Assembly: GCF_036245865.1 (NCBI RefSeq)
Contig: NZ_BTTW01000008.1
Coordinates: 96,396-160,395 of the forward strand
DNA from: Corallococcus caeni
GTDB taxonomy: Bacteria > Myxococcota > Myxococcia > Myxococcales > Myxococcaceae
DNA: 64,000 bases
Direction: 5' to 3'
Shown here in pieces: positions 4,594 through 49,502 of the stretch. The notes below the pieces were generated by a model. It searched no databases. It saw nothing but the letters and a program-made list of their open reading frames with translations, and was not told the origin of the DNA. Each line of letters opens with the position of its first letter. The stretch's first letter is position 1. The translations under genes and the position numbers were made by a program.

Positions 4594-4631
4594 CTTGCGC
4601 GCGAGCACGCCGCTTGCTTACGTGAAAGGCC

Positions 4632-21520: not shown

Positions 21521-22273
21521 ATGGCACAGATCAAGCTCGGAGAACTGCTGATCAAGGCGAACGTCCTGCAGGAGAGCCAGCTCAAGGCGGCGCTCGCCGA
21601 GCAGGCCAAGTGGGGCGGGAAGCTGGGCGAGATCCTCGTCCGGATGAACCTCGTGTCCGAGGACATCCTCGTGCGCGCCCTGTCGAAGCAGCTCGGCATG
21701 CCGGCGGTGAACCTGGACGCCGTGCAGATGGTGCCGCCGCACGTGAAGTCCAAGATCCCGGCGCAGACCGCGCGCGACTTCTCCGTGGTGCCGCTGCAGC
21801 TGCGCGACGACGGCAAGACGCTCGTGGTCGCCATGTCGGACCCGCTCAACGTGCGGGTGCTGGACGAGCTGCGGGCCCTGTCCAAGTGCCGCATCGTGGC
21901 CAACGTGGCGGGGCGCACCTCCGTGGCGCGGGCGTTCGCGCGCCTCTACGAGGAGACGGCGGAGCTGGAGGACGCGGACACCAACTTCAAGGTGGTGGAC
22001 GCGCAGGGCCGCACCGTCGTGAAGAACCTGAAGGACCTGGACCCGGCCGCCGCCGTCGCCATGTCCCCCAAGCCCGCCGCCGCCGCTCCGCCCCGGCCAC
22101 CGCCCCCCGCGGAGGCCCCCCGTCAGGCCGCCTCCGGCAGCCCCGCGGAGCTGCTCAAGAGCGTGGAGGAGGTCCAGCGCAAGGAGGTCGCGGCGCTGAA
22201 GGCCATGGTGGAGCTGCTCATTGAGAAGGGTGTTTTCTCCCGCGAGGAATACCTCGCCAAGGTCAAGCGGTAG
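21521..22273 (+). CDS. Stand-alone MshEN / T2SS-E N-terminal (GSPII_E_N) domain protein
   Basis: Two tandem 24-residue MshEN-type motifs (KLGELLIKANVLQESQLKAALAEQ; KLGEILVRMNLVSEDILVRALSKQ). No ATPase domain. Confidence 0.7.
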   Translation: MAQIKLGELLIKANVLQESQLKAALAEQAKWGGKLGEILVRMNLVSEDILVRALSKQLGMPAVNLDAVQMVPPHVKSKIPAQTARDFSVVPLQLRDDGKTLVVAMSDPLNVRVLDELRALSKCRIVANVAGRTSVARAFARLYEETAELEDADTNFKVVDAQGRTVVKNLKDLDPAAAVAMSPKPAAAAPPRPPPPAEAPRQAASGSPAELLKSVEEVQRKEVAALKAMVELLIEKGVFSREEYLAKVKR

Positions 22274-22282
22274 CCCCCGGCC

Positions 22283-23271
22283 ATGCGCAAGAAGATTGGT
22301 GAACTCCTCGTCCAGGCCGGAGTGGTGACGGACGAGCAGGTGAAGCAGGCCCTTGCCTCCGGACGTCGCGGCCAGGGCCGCAAGCTGGGCGAGGTGCTGG
22401 TGTCCATGGGCCTGTGCACGGGCCGGGACATCGCGCGGGCGCTGGCGGCGCAGCACGAGCTGCCCTTCGTGGAGATCCCCGAGTACATCCCGCACGGGGT
22501 GTCCTCGCTGGTGTCCATGGACTTCCAGAGCGAGCACCGGGTGCTCCTCTTCGCTTCGGAGCAGGACGGCCGCAGCGAGAAGATCCACGTCGCGGTGGAG
22601 GACCCGGGCAACCTGATGCTGGTGGACGAGCTGCGCTTCCAGCTGCGCAAGCAGCTCAAGGTATTCGTCGCCGCGTCGGATGACATGGAGCAGGCGCTCG
22701 CGCGCGGCCGGGGCGAGCCCCTGGACATCGTGGAGGCTGAACCGATGGACATGGACGAGGACGATTCGCCGGACATCCTGCCGTCGCCGCCTTCCGCCTC
22801 CGCGCGGCCCCCGGCGCCGCCGCGCCCGCCCGCGCCGCCGGCGCTGGACTGGGACCTGCCTCCACCGCCGCCGCACGAGTCGGGCGTCGACGGCGCGGAG
22901 GTGCTGGAAGACATCCTGGGCTCCAAGCCCCGCCCCAAGGCCCCGCGTCCCCCGCCGCCGCCCGCCGCGGCCCGGCCGCCGCCCCCTCCGCCCTCCGAGC
23001 CCGAGGACCCGAGCAAGCCGCGCGTGCCGGTGGTGCTCTTCGGCGGCGCCGCGCAGGGCGCGAAGCCGTCCATGGCGCTCACGCCCACGCCGGACTTCTC
23101 CGAGGAGGACCTGGCGGTGCTGGACGACATCGACCGCATCTCGCGCGGCGAGGAGGCCAGCCTGGACACGGAGAAGGTGAAGCCCGCGCGCATGGTCGCG
23201 AGCCTCATCCGCCTGCTCATCCGCAAGGGGCTCATCCAGGAGGCGGAGTTCCTGGAGGAGCTGGCCCAGAA

Positions 23272-23275
<4 letters not shown>
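22283..23275 (+). CDS. Second stand-alone MshEN / T2SS-E N-terminal domain protein with a Pro-rich linker
   Basis: Motifs [24 protein letters not shown] and [24 protein letters not shown]. The C-terminal helix resembles that of the first MshEN gene. Confidence 0.7.
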
Positions 23276-24309: not shown

Positions 24310-25361
24310 GCGAACCCCTGGTCCAGGTGCGCGACCTGAAGGTGCACTTCCCGGTGAAGGGCGGCCTGCTGGGGCGCACGCGCGGCACGGTGCGCGCGGT
24401 GGACGGCGTGTCCTTCGACGTCGCCCGGGGCGAGACGCTGGGCCTGGTGGGGGAGAGCGGCTGCGGCAAGAGCACCCTGGGACGCGCGGTGCTGCGCCTC
24501 ATCGACCCGACCTCCGGCTCCATCCGCGTGGCCGGGCGCGAGCTGACCGGCCTGTCTCAGCGCGAGCTGCGGCCGCTGCGCCGGCAGATGCAGCTCGTCT
24601 TCCAGGACCCGTACGCGTCGCTCAACCCGCGCATGACGGTGGGGGACATCCTCGCGGAGCCCTTCGCCATCCATGGCCTCGCGAAGGGCAGGGCGCGCGA
24701 GGACGAGGTGCTGGCGCTGCTCGACGCCATGGGGCTGCCCCGCGAGGCGCGGCACCGCTACCCGCACGAGTTCTCCGGCGGCCAGCGTCAGCGCATCGGC
24801 ATTGCACGTGCCATCGCGTTGCGTCCGGACCTGGTGGTGGCGGACGAGCCCATCAGCGCGCTGGACGTCTCCATCCAGGCGCAGATCGTCAACCTGCTGG
24901 TGGACCTGCAGCGCGAGCGCAGGCTCACATACGTCTTCATCGCGCACGACCTCAAGATCGTGGAGTACGTGTCCTCGCGCGTGGCGGTGATGTACCTGGG
25001 CCGCATCGTGGAGGTCGCGCCGTCGCGGGCGCTGTACGCCGGGCCTCGCCACCCGTACACGCAGGCCCTGCTGTCCGCGGTGCCGGTGCCGGATCCGGAG
25101 CGTCCCCGCGCGCGACTGCTCCTGCCGGGAGAGCCGCCCTCGCCGCTGTCGCCGCCGACCGGCTGCGCGTTCCACCCGCGCTGCCCCCATGCGATGGAGC
25201 GCTGCCGGCGCGAGTCGCCGCCGCTGTATCCGCTGGGCGGAGGCCACGCCGCGGCGTGCTTCCTGGCGGAAGGGGACTCGCGGGAAGTGCAGGACGGGAC
25301 CGCTGTTTCCGCGTCCGGAGGAGGCGCCGGTGTTCTGGCTCAGCCATCATCACGCGGATGA
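24306..25361 (+). CDS. ABC transporter ATP-binding protein, OppF/DppF type
   Basis: Walker A GESGCGKS, signature FSGGQRQR, and a C-terminal Cys motif. ATGA overlap with the upstream gene. Confidence 0.85.
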
Positions 25362-25737
25362 GTACAACCGCACGTACGTGCTCGCGGGCGTGCGCGTGTG
25401 CGCGCGGTGCCTGGGGACGTACCCGGTGCTCGCCGCCGTGTTCCTGGGGTTGTTCGCGCTGAAGGCGCCGCTCCGGTGGGAGTGGGACGTGCCGGTGGTG
25501 CTGGCCCTCACGCTGCCCGCGCTGGTGGACTGGGCGGTGGGACGCTTCCGGCCCGCTTCCGGTTCCAACGCGCTGCGCACGCTGACGGGCGTCCTCCTGG
25601 GAGTGGGGCTTGGCCGCTCGCTGTACGTGCACGTGCAGCGCCCGCTGCCGGCGGTGCTGCTGGCGCAGGCACTTCTGGTGACAGGGGTGGCGGTCCCTGT
25701 CATTCTCGCCACTTACCGGCGGCCACGGCCGGAATAG
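25330..25737 (+). CDS. DUF2085 family small membrane protein
   Basis: Motif [10 protein letters not shown] and three or four TM helices. GTG preceded by GGAGGAGG. It overlaps the 3' end of the oppF-like gene by 32 nt. Confidence 0.55.
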
Positions 25738-25768
25738 ACCTTTCGCGCACGGCTGTCCGTTACAGGCC

Positions 25769-26449
25769 GTGGGCGGTGAAGGGGATGGCACCCGTGGCTT
25801 CATGGGCACTGGGGGAAGTTTGGCACCCGAAACCTCAGACGAGCAGCTGATGCTCGCCTTCCAGGCGGGAGACGCGCGCGCGTTCGAAGCGTTGGTGCGC
25901 AAGCACCGCGCGCCGGTGTTCAACTTCATCCTGCGCTTCGTGGGGCAGCGGGCACGGGCGGAGGACGTGCTGCAGGAGACGTGGCTCAAGGTGGTCCGCA
26001 GCGCCCGGGAATACGAGCCCAAGGCCCGGTTCACGACCTGGCTGTACACCATCGCGAGGAACCTCTGCGTGGACAGCACGCGCAAAGAGAGCTACCGCCA
26101 GGCGACGTCCCTGGAAGCCCCCACGGCGGGTGCCGACGGGGACGAGGGACGTCCGCTGGGCGAGGGGCTGCCGGATGCCGGCGCCAGTCCGGAGCGCGGG
26201 GCGCACAACGCGCGCCTGCGGCCCCTGCTGGAGCGCGCCCTGTCGGGCCTGCCGGAGGAGCAGCGCGAGGTGTTCGTGCTGCGGGAGTACAGCGGCATCC
26301 CGTTCAAGGAGATCGCCGAGGTGACGGGCGTGTCCGAGAACACGGTGAAGAGCCGGATGCGCTACGCGCTGGAGGGCCTGCGCCGCCGCCTGGGAGAGCT
26401 GGGCGTGGATGGCGACCTGTCGGAGGATGGAAGGACGGTGGCGGGATGA
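25769..26449 (+). CDS. ECF (RpoE-like) sigma-70 family sigma factor
   Basis: Region 2 (AFEALVRKH...TWLYTIARN) and region 4 (REYSGIPFKEIAEVTGVSENTVKSR). The true start may be the internal Met at ~25802. Confidence 0.85.
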   Translation: MGGEGDGTRGFMGTGGSLAPETSDEQLMLAFQAGDARAFEALVRKHRAPVFNFILRFVGQRARAEDVLQETWLKVVRSAREYEPKARFTTWLYTIARNLCVDSTRKESYRQATSLEAPTAGADGDEGRPLGEGLPDAGASPERGAHNARLRPLLERALSGLPEEQREVFVLREYSGIPFKEIAEVTGVSENTVKSRMRYALEGLRRRLGELGVDGDLSEDGRTVAG

Positions 26450-27876
26450 GTGCCCAGAATGCCCACGCGCACGAGGACCGGCTCCTCGACTTCGCCTACG
26501 GCGAGCTGCCCGCGTCGGAGGCCCGGTCGCTGGAGCAGCACGTCCAGGGCTGCGCGCGCTGCACGAAGGCGCTGGCGGACATCCGCGGCGTGCGGACCAC
26601 CATGGCGCAGCTGTCGTCGGAGCCCGCGCCGGACGCGGGCCTGGAGTCGCTGCTCGCGTACGCGCAGCAGTCCGCGCGCCGCGCCGCCGCGGGGCCCGAG
26701 CCGAAGCCCTCGCGCTGGCGCCGCTGGCTCCTGCCCGCGGTGGGCCTGGCCACGGTGAGCACCTTCGGCCTCCTGACGCTGACGGTCAGCGAGAACCTCC
26801 ACCTGGAGCCGAACCTGACGCAGAAGGCCTCCAGCCCGACGATGGAGGCGGCGAAGCAGAAGGCGGAGTATCCCGCCTCGCGCGCCGCGATGCCCCCGCC
26901 CGCGCCTTCGAGCGCGCCCCTGGCGACGGCCGCGCCCGAGCCGATGGAGCAGCTCGCGGACCGGAAGCAGGGCGACGCGCAGGCAGAGCTCAAGGGCGCG
27001 GCCGGCGCCCGTCCGTCGGACTGGATGAACGCGGGCAGCGGTGGCGCGCTGCTGGAGCGGCGTCGCGCGGACGCCGACGCACCGAAGAAGAAGATGGCCA
27101 AGGCCGTCCGGGACGCGGACGAGTTCGCGGCGCTCGAGCCGGCCCCGGCCGCCGCGGTCGCGCAGGAGATGTCTCCGCCTCCGAAGGAAGAGGAGGCCGA
27201 CAGCGCCCTCGCCATGAAGGACGCCCCCGCGCCGCGGCGCGCACCCGGTGCAAGCAGCGACAAGGCGAAGGTCGCGAAGAACGACTCCCTGCGCCTGGGC
27301 GGTGCGTCTTATGGCCGTGGGCTCGCCCTGGACGATGAAGCCGAAGGCATGGCCGCGGGCGCGGCCCCGCCGCCTCCTCCCGTGGCCTCCGCGCCCATGG
27401 CCGAGGCCGTGGCTCCCGTCGCCACGGGCGCGCTGGGCCGCCAGCCCGCGCCCGCGAACACGACGCTCTCAGCCCCCGAACAGCGGAAGGAGTCCACCCG
27501 CGCGGAGGCCGCGAAGCCCAGGCCCGTGGAGAAGTCCGCCTCCTCCGAAGATGCGATGACGTCACGCGACCTGTCCGCCCAGGCCCAGGCCGCCGCGAGC
27601 CAGGGGGACCGCGCCCGGGAAGCACAGCTGCTGCGCGCCGCACTCGCCGCCGGAGCCACGGGCAGCGAGCGGTTGGGGCTGCTCTCACGGCTCTGCGAGT
27701 CGGAGTCCGTCCAGGGCCGGAGCCAGGAAGCCGCCACCGTCTGCGGGCAGATCATCACCGAGGCCCCCGGCTCCAGCGCGGCCCAGCTGGCCCAGCGCCG
27801 CCTGCGTCAGGCCTCGCCTCCCGCCGCCCCCGCGTCGGCTCCCGCCAAGGTCGCCCCCTCCACGCCCGCGCAGTAG
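26446..27876 (+). CDS. Anti-sigma factor (zf-HC2) with one TM helix and a long Ala/Pro-rich periplasmic region
   Basis: HxxxCxxC motif (HVQGCARC). ATGA overlap with the sigma gene. TM helix WLLPAVGLATVSTFGLLTL. Confidence 0.7.
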   Translation: MSAQNAHAHEDRLLDFAYGELPASEARSLEQHVQGCARCTKALADIRGVRTTMAQLSSEPAPDAGLESLLAYAQQSARRAAAGPEPKPSRWRRWLLPAVGLATVSTFGLLTLTVSENLHLEPNLTQKASSPTMEAAKQKAEYPASRAAMPPPAPSSAPLATAAPEPMEQLADRKQGDAQAELKGAAGARPSDWMNAGSGGALLERRRADADAPKKKMAKAVRDADEFAALEPAPAAAVAQEMSPPPKEEEADSALAMKDAPAPRRAPGASSDKAKVAKNDSLRLGGASYGRGLALDDEAEGMAAGAAPPPPPVASAPMAEAVAPVATGALGRQPAPANTTLSAPEQRKESTRAEAAKPRPVEKSASSEDAMTSRDLSAQAQAAASQGDRAREAQLLRAALAAGATGSERLGLLSRLCESESVQGRSQEAATVCGQIITEAPGSSAAQLAQRRLRQASPPAAPASAPAKVAPSTPAQ

Positions 27877-27894
27877 GGGAGGGGGGCAGTCCAC

Positions 27895-28188
27895 ATGACC
27901 GATGCGTGGAAGGCCCGGGTCCTGGATAATGGGGCCATGAGGTCGGACGTGCACGCTCCCCCCGTGAACAGCCCCCGGAAGTCTCCGCCCCGCCGGATCC
28001 GCCGTGGCCAGGCCATGGTGGAGTACTCGATGATCAACTGGGTGTTGATCGTCGGGCTCGTCGTCGGCGCCACGGTGAAGATCCGCTGGAACGAGGACAA
28101 GCAGACCAACGTCATCGACCTGTTCCTCGAGGCGTACCAGATTTATTACGACTCGTTCTACTTCGTGCTGAACCTGCCGTTCCCCTGA
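27895..28188 (+). CDS. Flp/Fap-family type IVb prepilin
   Basis: Class III signal-peptide motif G/QAMVEY followed by a hydrophobic helix (SMINWVLIVGLVVGATV). Strong Shine-Dalgarno-like sequence. The leader is unusually long; an internal start at ~27937 is possible. Confidence 0.65.
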   Translation: MTDAWKARVLDNGAMRSDVHAPPVNSPRKSPPRRIRRGQAMVEYSMINWVLIVGLVVGATVKIRWNEDKQTNVIDLFLEAYQIYYDSFYFVLNLPFP

Positions 28189-28288
28189 ACGGGACGGAGG
28201 AAGGCCGCGGATCAGGCCCGTGTGTCGCGCCGTCCTCCCCACCCGGCGGACAGGCGCCGCGAGCCCCGGGTGTCCCGGGATTCCGCTT

Positions 28289-28341
28289 TGTCACGAGAGG
28301 TGGTTTTGACACCTGCTCTGGGGCATGGCTAACATCTTGCC
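28289..28341 (+). promoter_or_regulatory. Candidate sigma54 (-24/-12) promoter TGGCTAACATCTTGC with an adjacent inverted repeat TGTCA-N13-TGACA, upstream of cpaB
   Basis: The GG and GC elements have the canonical 10-nt spacing (TGGC at 28326-28329, TTGC at 28337-28340). The inverted repeat spans 28289-28311. cpaB ATG is at 28426. Confidence 0.4.
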
Positions 28342-28425
28342 CCGTTCGCGCCCTGGCATCGCCCCCTCGTCCAAAGCTGTCCTGCCGCCACGACGGCGCC
28401 CCACCGTTCTGGAGGACCTAGAACC

Positions 28426-29244
28426 ATGTTGAAGGGTAAGACCCCGCTCGTCGTCGCACTGGTGCTCGGTTTGCTCGCCGGCATCGTGGCCTACTCGGCC
28501 ATCAAGAAGAAGGAATCGGATGTGCGCCGCGGGTGGAACCTGGTGCCCGTGGTGGTGGCGGGCCAGGACATGCCCGAGGGGTCGGTCATCACGTACGAGA
28601 TGATCTCCCAGCGCTCCGTGCCCGAGCAGTTCGTCACCTCGTCGGTGGTGAAGCCGGACTCCGCGAACTACATCGTGAACCAGAAGGTGCTGGTGGCGCT
28701 GCAGGCCGGCGACCCCATCCTCTGGAGCCAGTTCGAGACGACGAAGGCCGCCGAGCGCCTGTCCACGAAGGTGCAGAAGAAGGCGCGCGCCATCACCATC
28801 GAGGCGAAGCAGACCACGTCCGTGGGCGGGTGGATCCGCCCCAACGACCACGTGGACATCATCGGCACGTTCCGCGATCCGCAGACGGATGAGAGCGTCG
28901 CCGTGACGCTGCTGCAGAACATCATCGTGGTCGCGACGGGCAAGATCACCGGCACCACGAACATCAACCTCATCCCGGAGAACCAGCGCGAGTACAACAA
29001 CGTCTCGCTGATGGTGCTGCCGGAAGAGGCGGAGATCCTGGTGCTGGCGGCGGAGCTGGGGCAGCTGACGCTGTCGCTGCGCAACGAGGACGACGTGGAC
29101 CTCATCGAGGAGCGCGGCCGCGCCACCATCAGCACGCTGCTGTCCGGCGAGCGCACCCGCGTGCTGGAGCAGAAGCGCCGGGAGATCATCCAGATCATCA
29201 AGGGCAGTGGCAGCGGCGAGAAGGCCTCGGCCGGCTCCCCGTAG
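28426..29244 (+). CDS. CpaB/RcpC-family Flp pilus assembly protein
   Basis: N-terminal TM helix, SAF-like domain, and an RcpC C-terminal domain. GGAGGA Shine-Dalgarno-like sequence. Confidence 0.75.
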   Translation: MLKGKTPLVVALVLGLLAGIVAYSAIKKKESDVRRGWNLVPVVVAGQDMPEGSVITYEMISQRSVPEQFVTSSVVKPDSANYIVNQKVLVALQAGDPILWSQFETTKAAERLSTKVQKKARAITIEAKQTTSVGGWIRPNDHVDIIGTFRDPQTDESVAVTLLQNIIVVATGKITGTTNINLIPENQREYNNVSLMVLPEEAEILVLAAELGQLTLSLRNEDDVDLIEERGRATISTLLSGERTRVLEQKRREIIQIIKGSGSGEKASAGSP

Positions 29245-29320
29245 TCGTCGCGCGCGGGGCTGCTTCCCAAGCTGAAGCGGCCCTGCCGACCCCTCCCTCA
29301 TCCCCCGGGGATTCGCGCCC

Positions 29321-30166
29321 ATGCTCGCAGGTATCGTCCTCCTCCTCGTCACCGGCTCGGTGTTCTTCTTCAGCCTGGTGATCTTCAGCGTCCTGTCGAA
29401 GGCGTACGAGCAGTACCAGGAGCGGTACGTCGCCAAGTCGATGAACGACTTGAGCGACATGTTCCTCTTCATCGACGCGCGGCAGATGTTGATCCTCAAC
29501 ATCGCCTGCATGTGCCTCCTGGGCATCCTCAGCTACATCATCTTCAACCCCATCCTGGCGGTGCTGGCGACCATCTTCGGCTTCTTCCTGCCGATGCTGC
29601 TCGTGAAGCACTACCGCAAGCGCCGCATCAAGAAGTTCAACGTGCAGCTGGTGGACGCGCTGCAGGCCATGGCCAACGCGTTCAAGGCGGGCCTCACGTT
29701 CCCCCAGGCCATCGAGCACGTGGCGCGCGAGGCGATGCCGCCCCTGTCCCAGGAGTTCGGCCTCTTCGTGAAGGAAGTGAAGCTGGGCGTGCCCCTGGAA
29801 GAGGCGCTCGTCAACATGGGCAAGCGCGTGGGCAGCGACGACCTGGAGCTGGTGGTGGTGTCCACCAACATCGCGCGTCAGCTGGGCGGCAACATGGCGG
29901 AGATGTTCGAGACCATCTCCACGGTGATTCGCGAGCGCTTCCGTCTGGAAGGCAAGATCGACGCGTTGACCTCCCAGGGCAAGCTCCAGGGGTGGATCGT
30001 CGCGGCCATGCCGGCGGTGCTGGGCATGGTGCTCAACTACATGCGTCCGGACCTGATGGAGCCGATGATGAACCACATCTTCGGCTACATCCTGGTGACC
30101 CTGATCGCCATCATGGAGATCATGGGCATCCTCATCATCCGGCGCATCGTCAACATCGACATCTGA
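29321..30166 (+). CDS. TadB-like inner-membrane platform protein (T2SSF domain)
   Basis: T2SS F-type domain flanked by TM helices. Confidence 0.75.
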   Translation: MLAGIVLLLVTGSVFFFSLVIFSVLSKAYEQYQERYVAKSMNDLSDMFLFIDARQMLILNIACMCLLGILSYIIFNPILAVLATIFGFFLPMLLVKHYRKRRIKKFNVQLVDALQAMANAFKAGLTFPQAIEHVAREAMPPLSQEFGLFVKEVKLGVPLEEALVNMGKRVGSDDLELVVVSTNIARQLGGNMAEMFETISTVIRERFRLEGKIDALTSQGKLQGWIVAAMPAVLGMVLNYMRPDLMEPMMNHIFGYILVTLIAIMEIMGILIIRRIVNIDI

Positions 30167-30179
30167 AACGAGGCGCACC

Positions 30180-31070
30180 GTGCAGGAAGTCCTGACATTT
30201 CTGCTGATGGGCGGCTCGGCACTGCTGACCGCGGGCGCGGTGGCGTTCCTGGGCATCGGCCTGTACTCCAACGTCCTGGAGCGCTTCCTGTCGGAAGTCC
30301 GGGACGAGTCCGCGGGCGGCGTGAAGGGCGCGGGCTCCGTCGCCATCCGCAAGCTGGGCGCGATGAACCGGCGCTTCATGTGGCCGGGCTACGAGTCCAA
30401 GACGCGCCGCAAGCTCATCAAGGCGGGCGAGCCGTCGCAGTACAAGCCCGAGGACATCATGGCGCTGCAGGAGATCAGCGCCTTCTTCGCCCTGCTGGCC
30501 GGCCTGTTCGTCGTCAACGGCATCGGGATGAACCTGGCCTGGTCACTGCTGGTGATGCTGCTGGGCCTGTTCTATCCGCTCATCTGGTTGAACGATCAGG
30601 TGAAGCGCCGTCACCTGGCCATCAGCCGCGCGCTTCCGTACAACCTGGACCTGCTGACGCTGTCGGTGGAAGCGGGCATGGACTTCACGGGCGCGCTGGC
30701 GAAGGTGGTGGAGAAGGGCCGCCAGGGCCCGCTGCGCGAGGAGCTGCAGCTGGTGCTCAAGCAGCTCAAGATGGGCAAGACGCGTGAGGAGGGCCTCAAG
30801 AGCATGATCGTGCGCGTGGACCTGCCGTCCCTGACGACCTTCGTCACGGCGCTGATCCAGGCGGACAAGATGGGCACGAGCCTGGGCAAGGTGCTGCGCA
30901 TCCAGTCCACGCAGATGCGCATCGACCGCACGCAGCGCGCGGAGAAGCTGGCCGGCGAGGCCCCGGTGAAGATGCTGTTCCCGCTCATCGCCTGCATCTT
31001 CCCGACGGTGTTCATGGTGCTCTTCGGGCCCATCGTGTTCCAGTTCATGTTCGGCAACGTCGGGGGCTAG
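30180..31070 (+). CDS. TadC-like inner-membrane platform protein (T2SSF domain)
   Basis: T2SS F-type domain (LPYNLDLLTLSVEAGMDFTGAL) with N- and C-terminal TM helices. Confidence 0.75.
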   Translation: MQEVLTFLLMGGSALLTAGAVAFLGIGLYSNVLERFLSEVRDESAGGVKGAGSVAIRKLGAMNRRFMWPGYESKTRRKLIKAGEPSQYKPEDIMALQEISAFFALLAGLFVVNGIGMNLAWSLLVMLLGLFYPLIWLNDQVKRRHLAISRALPYNLDLLTLSVEAGMDFTGALAKVVEKGRQGPLREELQLVLKQLKMGKTREEGLKSMIVRVDLPSLTTFVTALIQADKMGTSLGKVLRIQSTQMRIDRTQRAEKLAGEAPVKMLFPLIACIFPTVFMVLFGPIVFQFMFGNVGG

Positions 31071-31143
31071 TCCTCTGCCCATCCTGCTCACCATCACCCA
31101 GGGGCTCCAGGTCGGACGGGAGCTCGCCTTCGAGCAGGCCGAG

Positions 31144-34080
31144 GTGAAGATCGGCCGGACCTCGGAGAACGACCTGGTGCTGCATGACCACGGTGTCTCC
31201 CGGCGTCATGCCCGCATCACGGCGAGGGATGGGCGCTACTTCGCCGAGGACGTCGGCAGCGCGAACGGCACGCAGCTGAACGGCCAGCCGCTGGGCGGCG
31301 AGAAGCAGCTGCGCGACGGCGACCGCATCACCGTCGGTCCGGTGGAGTTCACGTTCGTCTGGGTGGCGCCGGAGGATGACGACGACGTCACCCGGCCCAT
31401 CCGGCGCGCGCTCGCGCCGCCGCATGCGCGGGTGTCGCCGCAGGGCGTGGAGCAGGCTTCGCTCGCGGAGATCGAAGCGGCGCCCACGAGCTACCAGCAG
31501 TCGATGCCCGCGATGGCGCGGCCCGCGTCCCTGCCGCGCCCCGGGATGGCCGTGCCCGCCGCGAAGGGTGGGGCGGCTGTTCCCGCGATGCCGGTGATGC
31601 CGGTGATGCCGAGCGCTACGCCGAAGCGGCCCTCCGCGCCGGATCTGCCAGCGGTCGGTGCCGCTCCGGCCAGGACTCCCCCGGGGCCTCCCGTGTTGGG
31701 AGCTGCGGCATCGGGAGCGGCCGTTCCGAGCAGGGCTCCCGCTGGACCTCCCGTGCTGGGGGCTTCCGCGCCCGGAGGTCAGGTGGCCGGAGCTCCGGCC
31801 AAGGCTCCCGGGGCGAGCGCTTCCGCGTCGGGCAGATCCTCCGCGCCGGGCTTGCCCGCGGTGGGGGCGTCCCCGGCGAACAAGGCCGGCGCGACGCCTC
31901 CAGCCCCAGGGGCTTCCCCCTCGGGAAGAGCCTCGGCGCCGGGCTTGCCCGCCGTCGGTGCCTCGGGTTCAGGCCGGTCGTCCGTACCGGGCGCGACCTC
32001 CATGCCCGCGGGGGTTCCCGAGCCCGCGCACCCGACGGCGCGTGAGCTTCCCGTGGTGGGCGCCCCTGCCTCGGTGGAAGCTGCTCCAGCGCCTGAGAAG
32101 GCCGCGGCCCCAGGCCCCGGAGAGCCGGCCGCTTCCGCGAAGCGCAAGGCTGGCGCGAACCTCCCCGGTGTCGGCGCGCCCGCGCTGAACCGTCCCGAGC
32201 TGGGTCGTGGCGCGGCACGTGCGTCCGCGGCTCCCGCGTCCAGCCTGCCGTTGATGACGCCGCCGGGGTTCATGGCTCCGCCTCCGCCGGCACGGCCTCC
32301 TGTCGCCCCGCCTCCCGTGGACCTCGCTCCGGTGATGCCGGACGAACCCGAGGAGCGCACGCTGATGGCGATCTCCACCGTGGATTCGCCCGTGCCCACC
32401 TCCACGCTGGCCCCCGTGCTGCCCGTCCCGGACCTGGAGGAGCCCGAGGAGCGCACGCTGATGGCGATCTCCACCGTGGATTCGCCCGTGCCCGCCTCCA
32501 CGCTGGCCCCCGTGCTGCCCGTCCCGGACCTGGAGGAGCCCGAGGAGCACACGCTGATGGCGATTCCGGCGACCCCGGAAGCGCCGCCCCGGGTGGAAGA
32601 CGCGCCGCCGTTGGACGCTTCATCCGCGCTGCCCGTGCCGACGATGGAGGAGCCCGAGGAGCGGACCGTCCTCGACCTCCGGCCCATCACCCCGGTCAGC
32701 CCGCTGGTGGCCAGGCCGCTGCGCTTTGGCGTCGCGGTGGCGACTCCCCCCGCGCCGGGCGCCCCCGAACCGGCGACCTTCGTCGGCCAGGACGACGCCA
32801 TCCCCGCGGACGCTCCGGAGGAGACCCGGGCATCCCCCACCTTCGCGGGCCAGAACGCTCCCGCTGCTCCCGCTTTGGCGCCTCCGCCCGCCTGGAGTCC
32901 CCCCGTCCCGCCGCCTTCGCCGGAGCCGGAGCCGGTCACGCTCGTGGGCCGGAACCGGTCCGCGTCTCCGCCGAAGCTCGACGCCGGACCGATGCCCGGC
33001 GAGGCGCCGCTGCTGGCTCCCGCGCTCGTCCCGGAAGGGGAGGGCAACGCCACCCAGCCCCACCCTCCCGGACTGGAAGCCTCCGCGATCGAGCCCGGGC
33101 CCAAGGGGCCGGTGACGGTCGTCGCGAAGGTCGAACCGTCGTCCGCCGCCGACAAGGCGCGCAAGCGGCGTCAGCTGGGCAAGACGCTCAAGGGCCAGTT
33201 CCTCCTCTTCTGGCAGCGCCAGTCGTTGCCCCGGCGCATTGGCTTCGCGTCGCTGGCGGGGCTGGGCGCGCTGGCGCTGGTGACGCTGCTCGTGGCGCTC
33301 GTGGTGCCCTCGGCGATCCGGCTCCCCGGCCGCGAACCCTACAAGCTGGGCATGGATCCGGTGCCGGACTCCTTTGGCCTGGGCGAGGGCGTGCGGTGGG
33401 TGCACGCCGACGACAAGCTCTTCGACTTCCGCTTCGTGTCCCCCACGCGCGCGGTGGCCGTGCTGCACTACCAGGCCAGCAACATCGCCCGGGACGAGGT
33501 CAACCTGTCCCTCAACGGGGTGTCCCTGGGGTGGGTGCCCCCGGACACGGCGCAGACGGCCGAGCGCGAGCTGGAGCAGGTCCTGCCCCCCAGCCTCCTG
33601 CGCCGCAACGCCAACAACCAGCTGCTCTTCGACAACGCCCTCAACCCGCCCGGCCGCGACCCCTGGCGCATCTGGAACCTGCGCCTGGAAGTCATCCCGG
33701 TGCCCGAGCTGCCGCCGGATCAGCTGGTCGCTTCCGCCCGGGAGTCCGCCAAGACCGGGGCCCGCTTCTACGAGCTGAAGGACGTGGGCGCGGAGAACCT
33801 GTTCAAGGCGTGGCGGGAGTACCGCGCCGCGTGGATCACCCTGGAAGCGCTCGACGAAAAGCCGGAGCTGTACGACGACGTCCGGGAGCGGATCGCCCAG
33901 ATTTCAACGGAGCTGGACCACCGCTGCGGGCAGTTGATGATGCAATTCCAGCGGGCGGTTCAGTTCCGCAGCCGACGGGATGCGGTCGCGACCCTCGAAG
34001 ACGTGCGGAGACGCTTCCCTACCGCCGAGCATCGCTGCCACAATCTGGCGCTGGAAAAAGCCTATGAGCACGAGCTTTAG
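31144..34080 (+). CDS. FHA-domain protein with a Pro/Ala-rich repeat region, one TM helix and a periplasmic C-terminal domain; the true start is probably upstream (~31075)
   Basis: FHA core (IGRTSENDLVLHDHGVSRRHARI...GSANGTQLNG). Internal near-perfect 96-nt tandem repeats. TM helix FASLAGLGALALVTLLVALVV. Confidence 0.75.
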   Translation: MKIGRTSENDLVLHDHGVSRRHARITARDGRYFAEDVGSANGTQLNGQPLGGEKQLRDGDRITVGPVEFTFVWVAPEDDDDVTRPIRRALAPPHARVSPQGVEQASLAEIEAAPTSYQQSMPAMARPASLPRPGMAVPAAKGGAAVPAMPVMPVMPSATPKRPSAPDLPAVGAAPARTPPGPPVLGAAASGAAVPSRAPAGPPVLGASAPGGQVAGAPAKAPGASASASGRSSAPGLPAVGASPANKAGATPPAPGASPSGRASAPGLPAVGASGSGRSSVPGATSMPAGVPEPAHPTARELPVVGAPASVEAAPAPEKAAAPGPGEPAASAKRKAGANLPGVGAPALNRPELGRGAARASAAPASSLPLMTPPGFMAPPPPARPPVAPPPVDLAPVMPDEPEERTLMAISTVDSPVPTSTLAPVLPVPDLEEPEERTLMAISTVDSPVPASTLAPVLPVPDLEEPEEHTLMAIPATPEAPPRVEDAPPLDASSALPVPTMEEPEERTVLDLRPITPVSPLVARPLRFGVAVATPPAPGAPEPATFVGQDDAIPADAPEETRASPTFAGQNAPAAPALAPPPAWSPPVPPPSPEPEPVTLVGRNRSASPPKLDAGPMPGEAPLLAPALVPEGEGNATQPHPPGLEASAIEPGPKGPVTVVAKVEPSSAADKARKRRQLGKTLKGQFLLFWQRQSLPRRIGFASLAGLGALALVTLLVALVVPSAIRLPGREPYKLGMDPVPDSFGLGEGVRWVHADDKLFDFRFVSPTRAVAVLHYQASNIARDEVNLSLNGVSLGWVPPDTAQTAERELEQVLPPSLLRRNANNQLLFDNALNPPGRDPWRIWNLRLEVIPVPELPPDQLVASARESAKTGARFYELKDVGAENLFKAWREYRAAWITLEALDEKPELYDDVRERIAQISTELDHRCGQLMMQFQRAVQFRSRRDAVATLEDVRRRFPTAEHRCHNLALEKAYEHEL
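32351..32575 (+). repeat. Near-perfect 96-nt (32-aa) in-frame tandem repeat, ~2.3 copies, inside the FHA gene
   Basis: Unit 1 (32351-32446) and unit 2 (32447-32542) are each 96 nt. They differ at one nucleotide, plus a partial third copy. Encodes EERTLMAISTVDSPVP(T/A)STLAPVLPVPDLEEP. Confidence 0.8.
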
Positions 34081-34107
34081 GGCCCGTGCCCCCCTCAGCA
34101 GGACGCG

Positions 34108-35856
34108 GTGACCGCCATGTCGAACGCACCACCCCCCGCCCGCCGACGGCCTACATCCGGTACGCCCTCTTCCGGGACCGGACAGCGCGCGCCGGTCCGC
34201 CGGTCCACCGCCGGTGCCGCCGCGGCCCGCCCCGCGAAGCTCGTCGTCATCGCCGGTCCCATGGAGGGTGAGGAGTTCGCGCTCGCCGACCTCGAGTACA
34301 CGGTCGGCCGCGCCACGGACAACCCCATCTGCATCCAGGACACGTCGGTCTCCCGCAAGCACGTGACGCTGCGCAAGGAGTCCGCCGGCTGGATGGTCAG
34401 CGACATGGGCTCCGGCAACGGCACCATCGTCAACGGCGAGCCCATCACCGAGGAGACGCTCCTCGCCAACGGGGACGTCATCACGCTGGGCGACTCGGAG
34501 CTGCGTTACGAGGACACCGCCAACAGCACCGCCAAGGTGCAGGCCCCCTCCGGCTCCCGGCCCCGTCCGTCCACGGCGGCGGGGCGCGGTCCCACGGCCG
34601 TGCCCTCGCGTCCTTCCCGCGAGGGACGTGCGCGCCCGCAGACGGCGCGGGCCGCGGCCGCCGCGGAGCTCACGCCGGAGATGCAGCGCAAGCGCATGCG
34701 GATGAAGCTCGCGGGCGCCGCCGTGCTGGTGCTGCTCTTCGCGGGCCTGGGCGTCGCGCGCTCGCGCATGCGGCACCAGCAGGAGGAGCAGGGCCGCATC
34801 GAGGCGGAGCAGCGCCAGTACCGCGAGCAGCTGGGCGGCCTCTTCCAGGAGGCCAAGAACCTGGTGCGCGAGGGCCAGTGGCAGCAGGCCAAGGCGAAGC
34901 TGGAGGAGCTCCACGCGCAGGCGCCGGACTACCCCGGCGTGGAGGACTACCTCAAGGCCGCGGAGCGGGAGATCCCCAACCAGAACCACCTGAGCACGGC
35001 CCAGGCGGCGCTGGACAAGGGGGAGCTCGCCAGCGCGAAGGCGTCCATCGCGAAGGTGAGCGCCGACACGCAGCTCTACGAGCAGCTGAAGACGGCGCGC
35101 AAGAACCTGACGGACGCCGCCGACAAGCGCACGAAGGAAGCCAAGCAGCTGCTGGACACCCGCCAGCTGGAGAACGTGCAGAAGGCCAAGGCCATCACCG
35201 ACGACGTGCTCGCGACCTTCCCGGAGCACCGCGACGGCAAGCTCGTGAACGACGATGCCGTGCGCGTCATCGCGGACCTGACCCGTCCGGATCCGGTGCG
35301 CGTGGCCGCGGCGCCCAAGCCGTGGGAGCCCGCCGTGGACCGCTTCCGCGACGGTGACACGTCCGGCGCGGTGGCCATCCTCAACGCGTGCGCGGCCAAG
35401 ACGCCGCAGTGCAAGCAGCTGATGGGGCAGGTGACGGAGTTCGGCAACCTCTACAAGAAGCTGGAGGAGCTGGACGCCAAGGGCCTCACCCGGTTGCTCG
35501 CGCTGGACAAGGACATCACCGACGGGCGCGGCAGCAAGATGGGCCGCAACGCGGGCACCCGCGCGTCGACCATCTATTACAAGAGCGCCGCGGGCGCGAA
35601 GGCCGCCGGCCAGTGGTCGCGCGCCATGGAGTTCGCCCGCCGCGCGCTCCAGGCGGACCCCAACCACACGGGCGCCGCCAACATCGTCAACGACCTCAAG
35701 GGCAAGGCGAAGGACCTGTACATGCAGGCCTACTCCATCAAGGACTCCAGCCCGGAGGACGCGCTGCCCAAGTTCCGCGACGTCGTCACGATGACGCCGC
35801 CCGACGACGAGCTGCACGGCAAGGCCCAGGGCTGGGTCGAGAAGCTGTCGCGATGA
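34108..35856 (+). CDS. Second FHA-domain protein with a TM helix and TPR/coiled-coil-like periplasmic region
   Basis: FHA core (VGRATDNPICIQDTSVSRKHVTLRK...GSGNGTIVNG). TM helix LAGAAVLVLLFAGLGV. Its stop overlaps the xseA start (ATGA). Confidence 0.75.
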   Translation: MTAMSNAPPPARRRPTSGTPSSGTGQRAPVRRSTAGAAAARPAKLVVIAGPMEGEEFALADLEYTVGRATDNPICIQDTSVSRKHVTLRKESAGWMVSDMGSGNGTIVNGEPITEETLLANGDVITLGDSELRYEDTANSTAKVQAPSGSRPRPSTAAGRGPTAVPSRPSREGRARPQTARAAAAAELTPEMQRKRMRMKLAGAAVLVLLFAGLGVARSRMRHQQEEQGRIEAEQRQYREQLGGLFQEAKNLVREGQWQQAKAKLEELHAQAPDYPGVEDYLKAAEREIPNQNHLSTAQAALDKGELASAKASIAKVSADTQLYEQLKTARKNLTDAADKRTKEAKQLLDTRQLENVQKAKAITDDVLATFPEHRDGKLVNDDAVRVIADLTRPDPVRVAAAPKPWEPAVDRFRDGDTSGAVAILNACAAKTPQCKQLMGQVTEFGNLYKKLEELDAKGLTRLLALDKDITDGRGSKMGRNAGTRASTIYYKSAAGAKAAGQWSRAMEFARRALQADPNHTGAANIVNDLKGKAKDLYMQAYSIKDSSPEDALPKFRDVVTMTPPDDELHGKAQGWVEKLSR

Positions 35857-37568
35857 AGAAGCGCAAGGGGCTGGAGCCGCCCCCGGCCGAGGAGCCGGGG
35901 CAGGGCGACCTGTTCGGCACGTCGCTGCTGCCACCCCTGCGCCCCCCTCCCGCGAAGGCCGCGAGCCCGAGCAAGCCACCCGTGGCCCCGCCGCCCGCGC
36001 CGGTGGCCGAAGCCGCGCCGCCGCCGCTGCCCGTCACCGTCACGCCGCCGCCGCGCCCGGAGCGCACGGTGCTGTCGGTGGGGGAGCTCACCCGGCAGAT
36101 CAAGCAGACAGTGGAGTCGCGCTTCCCGCGCGTACTGGTGCGCGGCGAGGTGTCCAGCTTCCGGGGCGCCAACGCTCGCGGCCACTGGTACTTCACGCTC
36201 AAGGACGCGGACGCCTCCATCGACGCGAAGGTGTGGGCGTCCATGGCGGGGCGGATGCGCTTCGCGCTGCGCGACGGCATGGAGGTGCTGGCCGAAGGCA
36301 GCGTGGACCTGTACGAGCCCCAGGGGCGCTACAGCCTCATCGTGTCCCGGCTGGAGCCGGTGGGCGAGGGCGCGCTGGCGCTCGCGTTCGAGCAGCTCAA
36401 GCAGCGGCTGGCGGCGGAGGGGCTCATCGGCGACCGGCGCGTGCGGCCGCCCCGGCCCGTGCCGTTCCTGCCCCGGCGCATCGGCGTCGTGACGAGCCGC
36501 ACCGGCGCGGCGCTCCAGGACTTCCTGCGCGTGCTGCACTCGCGCAACCCCCGGCTGGGCGTGCTCCTGGCGGACGCGCGCGTGCAGGGCGAGGGCTCCG
36601 CGGAGGACGTGGCGCGGGCCATCGAGCGGCTGGGGCGCACCGACGTGGACGTCATCGTCGTGACGCGCGGCGGAGGGTCCGTGGAGGACCTCTGGACGTT
36701 CAACGAGGAGCGGGTGGCGCGGGCCATCTTCGCCTCGCCGGTGCCGGTGGTGTCCGCCATCGGGCACGAGATCGACTTCACCATCTCCGACTTCGTCGCG
36801 GACCTGCGCGCGCCCACGCCCAGCGCGGCGGCGGAGCGGCTGGCGCCGGTGCTGGCGGACCTGGAGCTGACGCTGGCCACGCAGTCCGGCCGCCTGCGCC
36901 GGGCCATGGAGCGGCGGGTGCTGGAGCTGCGCGAGCGCCAGGGTCAGCTTCGCGCGCGGCTGCCGGATCCGCGCCGCGAGGTGAACCATCAGCGGCTGCA
37001 CCTGTCCGAACAGGTGGAGGCGATGATGCGCGTGCTGCGCCCCCGCGTGCGTCAGGACCGGGAGACGCTGCGCGGCCTCCAGGAGCGGCTGCAGCGCTCG
37101 CGGCCCCAGACGCGGCTGTCGGAGCAGCGGGCCCATCTGCTCAAGCTGGCCATGCGCCTGTCGGAGGCGGCCCGCGCGGGCGTGTCCCGGCGGCGGGGCG
37201 CGCTGGCGGACGCGCGGCTGAGCCTGGAGCGGGCCTCGCCCACGGCGCGGGTGGCCACCGAGCGGGCGAGGGTGGCGCAGGCCCGGTCGCGGCTCCTGGA
37301 GCTGCAGCGGGGCATGCTGTCGTCCGCGCAGACGCACTTCGGGCGGCTGGGGGGCCGGCTGGACGCCCTGAGCCCCCTGAAGGTGATGTCGCGCGGCTAC
37401 GCGGTGGCGTTCCGCCAGCGGGACGGCGGGGTGGTGCGTTCCATGGCGGACGTGGCGGTGGGGGACGTGCTGGGCATCAAGCTGGCGGCCCACGGGGCGA
37501 AAACCCTGGGAGGGTGTGAAGAAATCGAAGCGACCGTTACCAGCCTGAAAGGCCCGGTGGACTGCTAG
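35853..37568 (+). CDS. xseA: Exodeoxyribonuclease VII large subunit
   Basis: OB-fold N-terminus and XseA catalytic core (GVVTSRTGAALQDFL, VVTRGGGSVEDLWTFN). ATG at 35853 is in frame with the track ORF. Confidence 0.9.
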   Translation: MKKRKGLEPPPAEEPGQGDLFGTSLLPPLRPPPAKAASPSKPPVAPPPAPVAEAAPPPLPVTVTPPPRPERTVLSVGELTRQIKQTVESRFPRVLVRGEVSSFRGANARGHWYFTLKDADASIDAKVWASMAGRMRFALRDGMEVLAEGSVDLYEPQGRYSLIVSRLEPVGEGALALAFEQLKQRLAAEGLIGDRRVRPPRPVPFLPRRIGVVTSRTGAALQDFLRVLHSRNPRLGVLLADARVQGEGSAEDVARAIERLGRTDVDVIVVTRGGGSVEDLWTFNEERVARAIFASPVPVVSAIGHEIDFTISDFVADLRAPTPSAAAERLAPVLADLELTLATQSGRLRRAMERRVLELRERQGQLRARLPDPRREVNHQRLHLSEQVEAMMRVLRPRVRQDRETLRGLQERLQRSRPQTRLSEQRAHLLKLAMRLSEAARAGVSRRRGALADARLSLERASPTARVATERARVAQARSRLLELQRGMLSSAQTHFGRLGGRLDALSPLKVMSRGYAVAFRQRDGGVVRSMADVAVGDVLGIKLAAHGAKTLGGCEEIEATVTSLKGPVDC

Positions 37569-37975: not shown

Positions 37976-38365
37976 ATGTCGAAGCCGAAGATTACGATTG
38001 TCGATGACGACCGGGACACGCGCGAGCTGCTCGCCGAGGCCCTGGGGGCCGAGGGGTTCGAGGTGATGTCCGCGGCCAACGGCCTGCGGCTCGTCGCGTC
38101 GCTGGAGCTGCACCGGCCGCACGCCATCCTCCTGGACGTGAACATGTCCTGGATCAACGGCTTCGAGCTGTGTCAGGCCGTGAAGCAGAACAAGCAGTTC
38201 CGGGACATCCCCATCATCTTCATCAGCGGGCGGGGAGACCCGGAGGACAAGCGGCGCGGCATGGAGGTCGGCGCGGCCGACTACTTCGTGAAGCCGCTGG
38301 AACTGGACGCGCTCGTCAAGCGCATCCGCGAACTCATCCCCGCCGACGTGGCGAAGGAGCCCTGA
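37976..38365 (+). CDS. Single-domain response regulator (CheY-like receiver)
   Basis: REC motifs (ITIVDDD, ILLDVNM, K at FVKPL). Confidence 0.8.
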   Translation: MSKPKITIVDDDRDTRELLAEALGAEGFEVMSAANGLRLVASLELHRPHAILLDVNMSWINGFELCQAVKQNKQFRDIPIIFISGRGDPEDKRRGMEVGAADYFVKPLELDALVKRIRELIPADVAKEP

Positions 38366-49042: not shown

Positions 49043-49095
49043 CATAATCAGGTCGCCCCGCTCCCGGTGGAGCAGGCGCTGGCGAGGATCACCTC

Positions 49096-49437
49096 ATGGC
49101 ACAGGGTGAAACGGGCATCATTGGCAAGGGCATCGTCATCAGGGGCAACCTCACGGGCGGAGGGGACCTGGTCATCGAAGGGCGTGTGGAGGGGCAGATC
49201 GCCCTGAAGAACCACCTCACCATCGAAGGCACCGGCAAGGTCCAGGCGGACATCCGCGCCGAGGAGCTGACCATCAACGGCGAGGCGAGCGGCAACATCG
49301 ACGCTTCCACGCGCGTGGCCATCAACGCCTCGGCGAAGGTGGCGGGTGACATCAAGGCCCCGCGGGTCGTCATCGAGGACGGAGCGGTGTTCAACGGCTC
49401 CATCGAGATGGACGTGAAGTTGCCGGACGACATCTAG
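49096..49437 (+). CDS. bacN: Bactofilin
   Basis: Bactofilin beta-helical repeat domain (DUF583). First of three tandem paralogues followed by a ParB-like gene. The symbol is inferred from order. Confidence 0.8.
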   Translation: MAQGETGIIGKGIVIRGNLTGGGDLVIEGRVEGQIALKNHLTIEGTGKVQADIRAEELTINGEASGNIDASTRVAINASAKVAGDIKAPRVVIEDGAVFNGSIEMDVKLPDDI

Positions 49438-49502
49438 CATCCACCGGGGTCCGTCCCACGGGCCCCCCAGGCGCACAGCTTCGAGCAAGGCGGACAACAC
49501 TC

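Follow-up and report, generated by a model that had tools for sequence, protein, structure and literature searches.

Bacteria of the genus Corallococcus are predators, and gene clusters of the Kil type have been reported in predatory lineages only. In Myxococcus xanthus the Kil apparatus is split between two loci, cluster I (MXAN_3102-3108) and cluster II (MXAN_4648-4661); its core kil genes are required for the lysis of prey, and clusters of KilG-NG appear where the cell contacts its prey (Seef 2021, PMC8460266). Cluster II comprises, in order, an FHA-TPR gene (MXAN_4648), an FHA gene (MXAN_4649), kilH, kilG, kilB, two unknown genes, kilK (MXAN_4655), two further unknown genes, kilL, a TadG-like gene, kilM and a zinc-finger gene (MXAN_4661) (Seef 2021, PMC8460266). 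The major pilin, KilP (mxan_5121, 97 amino acids (aa)), is encoded elsewhere in M. xanthus, and KilK, which acts like an Flp pilin, is the adapter minor pilin joining the Tip complexes to the KilP filament (Herrou 2025, PMC12075869). Tip4 is the only tip of M. xanthus that kills independently of the type III secretion system that has no needle (T3SS*). The existence of the Kil system, its two-cluster organisation and its occurrence in Corallococcus have all been published and are not new in themselves. Here, we describe a cluster of Tad/Flp-type pilus genes in a 64-kb stretch of the genome of Corallococcus caeni (assembly GCF_036245865.1, contig NZ_BTTW01000008.1, positions 96,396 to 160,395), hereafter the window, and compare it with Kil cluster II.

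Relationship of the locus to Kil cluster II

Genes in the window, which has a G+C content of ~71%, were called by third-position G+C (GC3) and then searched against profile libraries. Layout and conservation were compared across 80 loci, the matches of a KilB-based scan of reference genomes. The genes of the kil region (27895-35856) are all encoded on the plus strand and are tightly packed behind an extracytoplasmic function (ECF) sigma factor/anti-sigma factor pair (Table 1), with intergenic gaps from the sigma gene to the second FHA gene of -22, 18, 237, 76, 13, 4 and 27 nt, and with the stop codon of the last gene overlapping the start of xseA (ATGA). This operon-like packing fits the published prediction of a 20-gene operon in M. 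xanthus. Every open reading frame (ORF) of the region is intact, and the window is collinear with C. exercitus at ~96% nucleotide identity by megablast. An initial annotation of this DNA had described an flp-like-cpaB-tadB-tadC-FHA-FHA series in one co-directional run, and the coordinates and the Pfam and NCBIfam matches agreed with this. It had also placed the FHA genes upstream, which was incorrect: they lie downstream of tadC, and the ECF pair alone is upstream.

A Myxococcus locus (L028 of our set), when annotated, had the published cluster II order and contained orthologs of every gene considered here in the same orientation. The flanks were also the same as in Myxococcus, with the ECF sigma/anti-sigma pair on one side and xseA, xseB and a response regulator gene on the other. 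The features of cluster II found in the window were a contiguous kilB-kilG-kilH, KilK encoded upstream of kilB, two FHA genes after kilH followed by xseA, and a border gene encoding a zf-HC2 protein. Because of this synteny and the identity to the Myxococcus loci, we assigned the genes as orthologs of cluster II. By analogy with M. xanthus, the region is very probably the Corallococcus ortholog of Kil cluster II, that is, the half of the pilus machine that would work with partners encoded elsewhere, made compact by loss. The initial annotation had proposed the second half-cluster of a split Kil system, and the published gene content together with the synteny and identity to MXAN_4648-4661 supports that proposal.

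The likeness to cluster II of M. xanthus extends over the series (sigma)-anti-sigma...kilK...kilB-kilG-kilH-FHA(4649)-FHA-TPR(4648)-xseA in order and orientation, and promoter-like elements are shared where visible; like the Myxococcus cluster, it has no gene for the ATPase, secretin or peptidase, which belong to cluster I. However, the Corallococcus locus lacks Tip4 and four accessory genes, so that kilK stands directly between the anti-sigma gene and kilB, and its first FHA protein is approximately twice as long, with a repeat-bearing Pro/Ala-rich linker and a probable CTG rather than a GTG start. With canonical Tad/Cpa loci (Caulobacter cpa, Aggregatibacter tad) the locus shares a prepilin with a G/XXXXEY site, a CpaB/RcpC protein and two single-domain T2SSF proteins corresponding to TadB and TadC. 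It differs from them in having no TadA/CpaF, RcpA/CpaC, TadZ/CpaE or TadV/CpaA in cis among the scanned GC3-supported ORFs of the 64 kb and no TadE/F/G-type counterpart of the Myxococcus Tip4 genes in cis, and in having the FHA-transmembrane proteins and the ECF pair attached.

Table 1. Features of the kil region of C. caeni (positions in the window)
Feature	Position	Strand	Support
Putative cis-element upstream of sigma gene, conserved	25679..25761	+	18-taxon alignment; single occurrence in window
ECF sigma factor (ortholog of gene beside MXAN_4661)	25820..26449	+	Sigma70_r2 6.9e-19, r4_2 9.8e-17, TIGR02937
Membrane anti-sigma factor (MXAN_4661 ortholog)	26428..27876	+	zf-HC2 2.2e-05; one transmembrane segment; 22-nt overlap with end of sigma gene
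kilK ortholog (MXAN_4655), Flp-like prepilin, 97 aa	27895..28188	+	RRG/QAMVEY (G38/Q39), then hydrophobic helix
Putative sigma70/sigmaA-type kilB promoter	28306..28335	+	TTGACA (28306-11), 18 nt, TAACAT (28330-35)
kilB (CpaB/RcpC family, MXAN_4652 ortholog)	28426..29244	+	RcpC 6.8e-23, SAF 3.5e-07 (Pfam); N-terminal transmembrane anchor
kilG (TadB/CpaG-type inner-membrane platform, MXAN_4651 ortholog)	29321..30166	+	single T2SSF domain 4.3e-17
kilH (TadC/CpaH-type inner-membrane platform, MXAN_4650 ortholog)	30180..31070	+	single T2SSF domain 1.8e-18
FHA1 (MXAN_4649 ortholog), 1001 aa from probable CTG start	31075..34080	+	FHA 1.3e-19; one transmembrane segment
Tandem repeat in FHA1 linker, 96 bp, 2.3 copies, 32 aa per unit	32340..32564	+	Tandem Repeats Finder score 422, 96% matches
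FHA2 (MXAN_4648 ortholog)	34108..35856	+	FHA 1e-18, Yop-YscD_cpl 5.9e-20, TPR

Conservation of the core genes and location of the missing partners

The CpaB assignment of KilB was far above the NCBIfam equivalog cut-off (TIGR03177 pilus_cpaB, 191.6 bits against 71). KilB was 100% identical to its counterparts in C. interemptor and C. exercitus and 93% identical to that of Myxococcus, while KilG, which has four hydrophobic segments, was 95% and KilH ~82% identical to the Myxococcus proteins. Across Corallococcus species the three proteins were 97-100% identical and the changes in their DNA mostly synonymous; kilB, whose divergence was almost wholly synonymous, differed between C. caeni and C. 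praedator by 24 synonymous and 6 non-synonymous codon changes. Judged from this substitution pattern, kilB, kilG and kilH are under strong functional constraint. In the anti-sigma factor, FHA2, the periplasmic domain of FHA1 and the KilK leader, non-synonymous codon changes between Corallococcus species equalled or exceeded synonymous ones. The first three of these evolve much faster than kilB, kilG and kilH, and the difference may reflect exposure to the envelope or the prey, or relaxed constraint.

Pfam scans of the GC3-supported ORFs of the window, which left out about ten small filter-passing ORFs and most of the below-filter ORFs, detected no T2SSE/CpaF, Secretin, Peptidase_A24 or CpaE/ParA-type protein, in agreement with the initial annotation, which had reported the ATPase, secretin, TadZ and prepilin peptidase as missing from the window. 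In the other GC3-supported ORFs these scans identified genes for chemotaxis and metabolism, for bactofilin/PadC-like, Tol/Exb and ABC proteins and for glycosyltransferases. The same annotation had counted TadZ/CpaE among the parts that the machine needs; however, the published list of Kil parts has no TadZ/CpaE, so that a TadZ gene is not expected anywhere in the genome. The other partners have been located in C. coralloides, with KilA, KilC, KilF and KilD at gene indices 4689-4692, KilH, KilG and KilB at 4609-4611, ~80 genes apart, and KilP at 2247; Tip1 occupies indices 7239-7241, and one Tip2 gene has index 626 (Herrou 2025 Suppl. Data 1, PMC12075869). Cluster I partners and KilP are also listed for another Corallococcus, with cluster I likewise ~80 genes away (Herrou 2025 Suppl. 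Data 1, PMC12075869). The two clusters are thus closer in the listed Corallococcus genomes than in M. xanthus, where ~1500 genes separate them, but ~80 genes still extends beyond a 64-kb window.

The small pilin gene encodes a KilK ortholog

The first gene of the kil region encodes a small protein with 266 homologs, all of them myxobacterial and most commonly 75 aa in length. Residues R37, G38, Q39, E43 and Y44, which form the Flp-type G/XXXXEY site, were invariant across an alignment of 32 sequences, as was a C-terminal YYDS.Y.VLNLPFP motif. The 20-odd additional N-terminal residues of the 97-aa protein are a leader extension found in the C. exercitus subgroup only. The Myxococcus homolog is 69-72% identical to the protein in the window, and its gene occupies the MXAN_4655 position, ~1.8 kb upstream of kilB. 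An AlphaFold2 model built from the family alignment had a helix (33-60), a hairpin and a second helix (73-92), with an overall pLDDT of 64 and confidence in the hydrophobic helix alone.

We considered two other identities for this protein. The major pilin KilP is also 97 aa long, but this was ruled out since the Myxococcus ortholog is at the position of MXAN_4655 (KilK) and is 75 aa long, the 97-aa length here being due to the lineage-specific leader extension; moreover, KilP has Ala at position 96, where this protein has its LPFP end. Membership of the Flp_Fap profile was rejected. Neither the full-length nor the mature protein matched any Pfam family even at E<=10, and there was no match in NCBIfam, which places KilK outside the curated Flp/Fap family (PF04964). 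Of the profiles proposed as checks on the initial annotation, T2SSF, CpaB/RcpC and FHA were therefore matched and Flp_Fap was not. Its description of the product as an Flp prepilin was right as to kind, given the invariant G/QAMVEY site and the orthology to KilK, but the protein has no Flp profile match and is not the major pilin. Its status as a pilin is based on the invariant G/XXXXEY motif, the mostly helical predicted structure and orthology to KilK.

Corallococcus has a compact cluster II that lacks Tip4

Three layouts of cluster II were present across the 80 loci, and they differed in what separates the anti-sigma gene from kilB. In Myxococcus, Pyxidicoccus, Citreicoccus and Hyalangium this interval contains KilM4-KilN4-KilL4-4657-4656-KilK-4654(-4653); in Archangium, Cystobacter and Vitiosangium the same block is inverted; and kilK alone occupies the interval in every Corallococcus locus and in a group of deeper-branching metagenome-assembled genomes (MAGs). 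Searches by tblastn with KilL4, KilM4 and KilN4 of Myxococcus (MXAN_4658-4660) gave no match either in the window or in the 12 Corallococcus-type loci, and orthologs of the accessory genes MXAN_4653, 4654, 4656 and 4657 were absent from the Corallococcus loci. The best 120 homologs of KilN4 (down to 44% identity) included proteins of Archangium, Cystobacter and Melittangium and none from Corallococcus save "C. macrosporus", which we infer to be Myxococcus macrosporus of GTDB, as listed in a published table (Herrou 2025, PMC12075869).

The deeper-branching Myxococcia MAGs (L057-L080), together with Myxococcaceae bacterium GXIMD 01537 (L078), resemble Corallococcus in the order sigma-anti-sigma-kilK-kilB-kilG-kilH without a Tip4 block, and in having xseA downstream and MshEN and ABC genes upstream. 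However, these deep compact loci have one FHA gene, which is FHA2-like, and no gene of the MXAN_4649 type, whereas Corallococcus has both. Since Corallococcus shares FHA1 with the Tip4-bearing genera and the deep compact lineages are without it, the Tip4 block and the accessory genes were most likely lost secondarily in Corallococcus. For the same reason we disfavoured the alternative that the compact layout is ancestral in this genus. A 2026 preprint described kilB-kilG-kilH as a conserved unit and noted that kilK and Tip4 are not conserved, so the variability of kilK and Tip4 is not a new observation. The absence of Tip4 from the sampled genomes of a predatory genus nevertheless provides a natural test of its contribution.

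Two FHA proteins of distinct architecture

FHA1 is predicted to begin with a cytoplasmic FHA domain, which is followed by ~600 aa of Pro/Ala-rich linker, a transmembrane segment (726-744) and a 260-aa periplasmic part made up of a beta-sandwich and a helical bundle. FHA2 has a disordered N-terminus, the FHA domain, a transmembrane segment (199-217) and C-terminal TPR repeats, and starts at GTG 34108 or ATG 34117. The linker of FHA1 (window positions 31400-33170) is rich in Pro, Ala, Gly and Ser and is hypervariable, with megablast alignments between Corallococcus strains breaking at ~31.6-32.4 kb. FHA1 is 939-1123 aa long in Corallococcus, compared with 482-650 aa in most other loci. In M. dinghuensis (L047) it is longer still, at ~1379 aa.

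The first canonical in-frame start codon of FHA1 is GTG 31144. The 23 residues that precede it, PLPILLTITQGLQVGRELAFEQAE, were conserved in all relatives and would complete the FHA domain, so that a gene of this family called from GTG 31144 would lose 23 residues and be cut into that domain. The codon homologous to CTG 31075 is GTG in loci of the M. xanthus group and TTG or ATG in others; it is CTG in Corallococcus, in most Archangium-type loci, in Hyalangium and in most Pyxidicoccus-type loci. In the window this CTG is positioned 4-5 nt past the kilH stop codon, behind a GGGGG run. Based on this conservation, FHA1 most likely starts at CTG 31075.

Neither FHA1 nor FHA2 orthologs have been characterised in the work that we found on the Kil system. 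Phospho-threonine signalling by the Kil FHA proteins, which the initial annotation had also suggested, is a speculation of published authors, who also listed a PrgH-like HHpred match for MXAN_4649 (Seef 2021, PMC8460266). Like SctD (YscD/PrgH) and the TagH/Fha scaffolds of type VI secretion systems, the two proteins have a cytoplasmic FHA domain, a single transmembrane segment and a large periplasmic part, and FHA1 as well as FHA2 matched Pfam Yop-YscD_cpl (1.7e-14 for FHA1). They differ from those scaffolds in that their scores are far under the family cut-offs and in that the fold of FHA1 is without ring-building motifs. TIGR02500 (SctD) scored 20.5 and 31.1 bits on the two proteins against a cut-off of 86, over the N-terminal 130-165 of 413 model positions only, and the GltG NCBIfam scored 46-50 against a cut-off of 650; the SctD, TagH and GltG alignments were mainly over the N-terminal FHA region.

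The C-terminal part of FHA1 was modelled confidently (pLDDT 88, pTM 0.72) as a beta-sandwich followed by a helical bundle. The best matches of the sandwich in the PDB were carbohydrate-binding modules (CBMs), collagen-binding domains, BcsB and domain III of Cry toxins, all of them weak (TM scores of ~0.25 on the query side and at most 0.5 on the target side), and the helical bundle resembled generic TPR-like proteins. An SctD/PrgH-like fold was absent from the best structural matches. In this model the periplasmic region of FHA1 combines a CBM-like sandwich with a TPR-like bundle and is not SctD-like, which argues against the PrgH/SctD-like label attached to MXAN_4649. We rejected FHA1 as an SctD/PrgH homolog on both scores and fold, as no full-length match that included the periplasmic ring-building domains was obtained. 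A homolog search with the C-terminal domain (33172-34077) gave a nearest match of 63% identity and missed the ~97% identical Corallococcus orthologs present in the fetched loci, so that the failure of this search to return a protein does not indicate its absence.

Two conserved putative promoter regions

The sigma/anti-sigma pair is linked to kilB in all three cluster layouts. The longest ORF of the sigma gene begins at GTG 25769, and conservation points to TTG 25820 as the likely start, behind the ribosome-binding site GGGGGAAG. The anti-sigma factor is fast-evolving, with a long Pro/Ala-rich extracytoplasmic part, and matched NF052375 antisigma at 1.1e-09, under the curated cut-off. Upstream of the sigma gene, the conserved element contains an inverted repeat, TGACAGG (25679-85)/CCTGTCA (25696-702), a 19-nt box, CTGTCATTCTCGCCACTTA (25697-715), and an ECF-like promoter part, TAGACC (25735-40)-N17-CGTT (25758-61). 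Of the 80 fetched loci, 46 had the ECF-like part at an equivalent position, the rest mostly ending short of that region or having no sigma match, and it was kept in Archangium loci with otherwise unrelated upstream sequence, where the neighbouring gene is not homologous to DUF2085. In the window the element overlaps the 3' end, including the stop codon, of a DUF2085 membrane-protein gene (25189-25737) situated between ABC ATPase genes and the sigma gene. The last ~60 nt of this gene carry the palindrome and the box, and third codon positions are invariant there; a regulatory DNA element thus seems to be embedded in the DUF2085 coding sequence. We regard a promoter/operator function for the element as putative.

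The second candidate promoter lies ~90 nt upstream of the kilB ATG, within the 237-nt spacer between kilK and kilB. Both of its hexamers were invariant in 14 taxa across the three layouts, regardless of the upstream gene, and a consensus scanner identified it as the sole sigma70-like site in 10.8 kb (25400-36200), with 0.2 expected from shuffled sequences. A sigma54-type promoter, TGGCTA-N5-TTGC (28326-28340), was attributed to chance, as it occurred in 2 of 81 sequences (the window and the closest strain) and overlaps the conserved -10 hexamer. Within the cluster there were only two weak candidates for intrinsic terminators, compared with 3.5 expected by chance, and Rfam at gathering thresholds detected no known RNA element in positions 20000-42000.

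This arrangement suggests two transcription units, one of ECF type (sigma, anti-sigma and kilK) and one of housekeeping type starting at kilB. The initial annotation had favoured ECF control over constitutive expression, which fits kilK, located directly behind the ECF pair, but not kilB, which has an invariant putative sigma70-type promoter of its own. The two conserved putative promoter regions offer concrete handles on the regulation of the Kil machine.

Proposed role of the locus and alternative explanations

As part of a Kil machine, the locus would supply KilG and KilH for the inner-membrane platform, KilB as a CpaB-type periplasmic protein and KilK as the adapter minor pilin, along with the two bitopic FHA proteins, whose role is putative, behind the ECF sigma/anti-sigma pair. 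By analogy with M. xanthus, the partners would come from elsewhere in the genome, namely from cluster I, with KilF as FHA-fused ATPase, KilC as secretin, KilA as peptidase, and KilD; from the gene for the major pilin KilP; and from those for the trimers of Tip minor pilins. In M. xanthus this machine is assembled where the prey is contacted, extends a short KilP pilus for which a Tip-KilK complex acts as the primer, and kills the prey. The unit of sigma, anti-sigma and kilK would be of ECF type and possibly autoregulated, and the second would run from kilB through kilG, kilH, FHA1 and FHA2 into xseA. A more specific version of this scheme, which we consider possible but doubtful, is that of a streamlined Kil machine in which Tip4 has been lost and contact killing depends fully on the T3SS*. 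Cluster II would in that case be organised as two units across the myxobacteria: an ECF unit (sigma, anti-sigma and kilK, with the Tip4 genes in Myxococcus) with a palindromic operator, which would gate pilus priming in response to an envelope signal sensed by the anti-sigma factor, and the core kilB-kilG-kilH-FHA expressed from a housekeeping-type promoter.

Several points weigh against the assignment to a working Kil cluster II. Its function in Corallococcus is transferred by orthology from M. xanthus, and cluster I, KilP and the Tips are documented for other Corallococcus genomes only and not for this strain. KilK is without a profile match, and confidence in its model is moderate only. Both promoters are read from sequence, and the two units proposed here differ from the single 20-gene operon predicted for the region in M. 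xanthus.

We therefore weighed the cluster II reading against three alternatives. The same parts could form an adhesive or surface-sensing Tad pilus module, with the rest supplied in trans and no role in predation in Corallococcus. CpaB, TadB, TadC and an Flp-like pilin are indeed generic Tad parts, and loss of Tip4, as the only T3SS*-independent killing tip in M. xanthus, could accompany a changed role; yet the one-to-one orthology and synteny with the killing machine of M. xanthus, the restriction of reported Kil-type clusters to predatory lineages and the retention of KilP, Tip1 and Tip2 in C. coralloides make this unlikely. It is very unlikely that the FHA-transmembrane proteins belong to another envelope machine, such as an SctD-like T3SS* ring or a GltG-like gliding apparatus, and are merely co-located with the kil genes. 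The SctD and GltG scores are far under the cut-offs and cover the FHA region and part of the following sequence only, the periplasmic model of FHA1 is CBM-like and TPR-like with no SctD/PrgH among the best matches listed, FHA1 starts 4 nt from kilH, and FHA2 stays beside kilH even in the deep lineages. These observations outweigh the Yop-YscD_cpl matches of both proteins (1.7e-14 and 5.9e-20), the weak NCBIfam matches to SctD and GltG, the PrgH-like HHpred match of MXAN_4649 (Seef 2021, PMC8460266) and the functional link between Kil and the T3SS*.

The third alternative, that a Tad locus has lost its ATPase, secretin and peptidase and that what is left is decaying and builds nothing, would account for the lack of motor, secretin, TadZ and peptidase genes in the 64 kb, for the missing Tip4 genes of relatives and for an FHA1 gene without a canonical start codon. 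However, all ORFs are intact, KilB, KilG and KilH are 97-100% identical across Corallococcus with mostly synonymous changes, and the elements of the putative kilB promoter are invariant. The CTG codon stands exactly where relatives have GTG, TTG or ATG, and is therefore a conserved start. In addition, M. xanthus has a functional system with this split layout, and the partner genes are present in C. coralloides. We regard decay as largely refuted and extremely unlikely.

Neighbouring genes

The products of two adjacent genes at 21521-23275 are stand-alone MshEN domains, which form the N-terminal domain in the ATPases of type II secretion systems and type IV pili; no ATPase part is attached. The two genes are located upstream of the ABC-ATPase pair and the ECF and kil genes, and both Corallococcus and the deep compact lineages have conserved this position. 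Downstream of xseA and xseB, a stand-alone response-regulator receiver gene (37976-38365) follows; its downstream location is conserved in most loci, and it belongs to the predicted 20-gene operon of M. xanthus. Two bactofilin genes followed by a gene encoding a ParB_N domain (49048-52044) are unrelated to the kil locus. They resemble the bactofilin-PadC chromosome-segregation module of M. xanthus.

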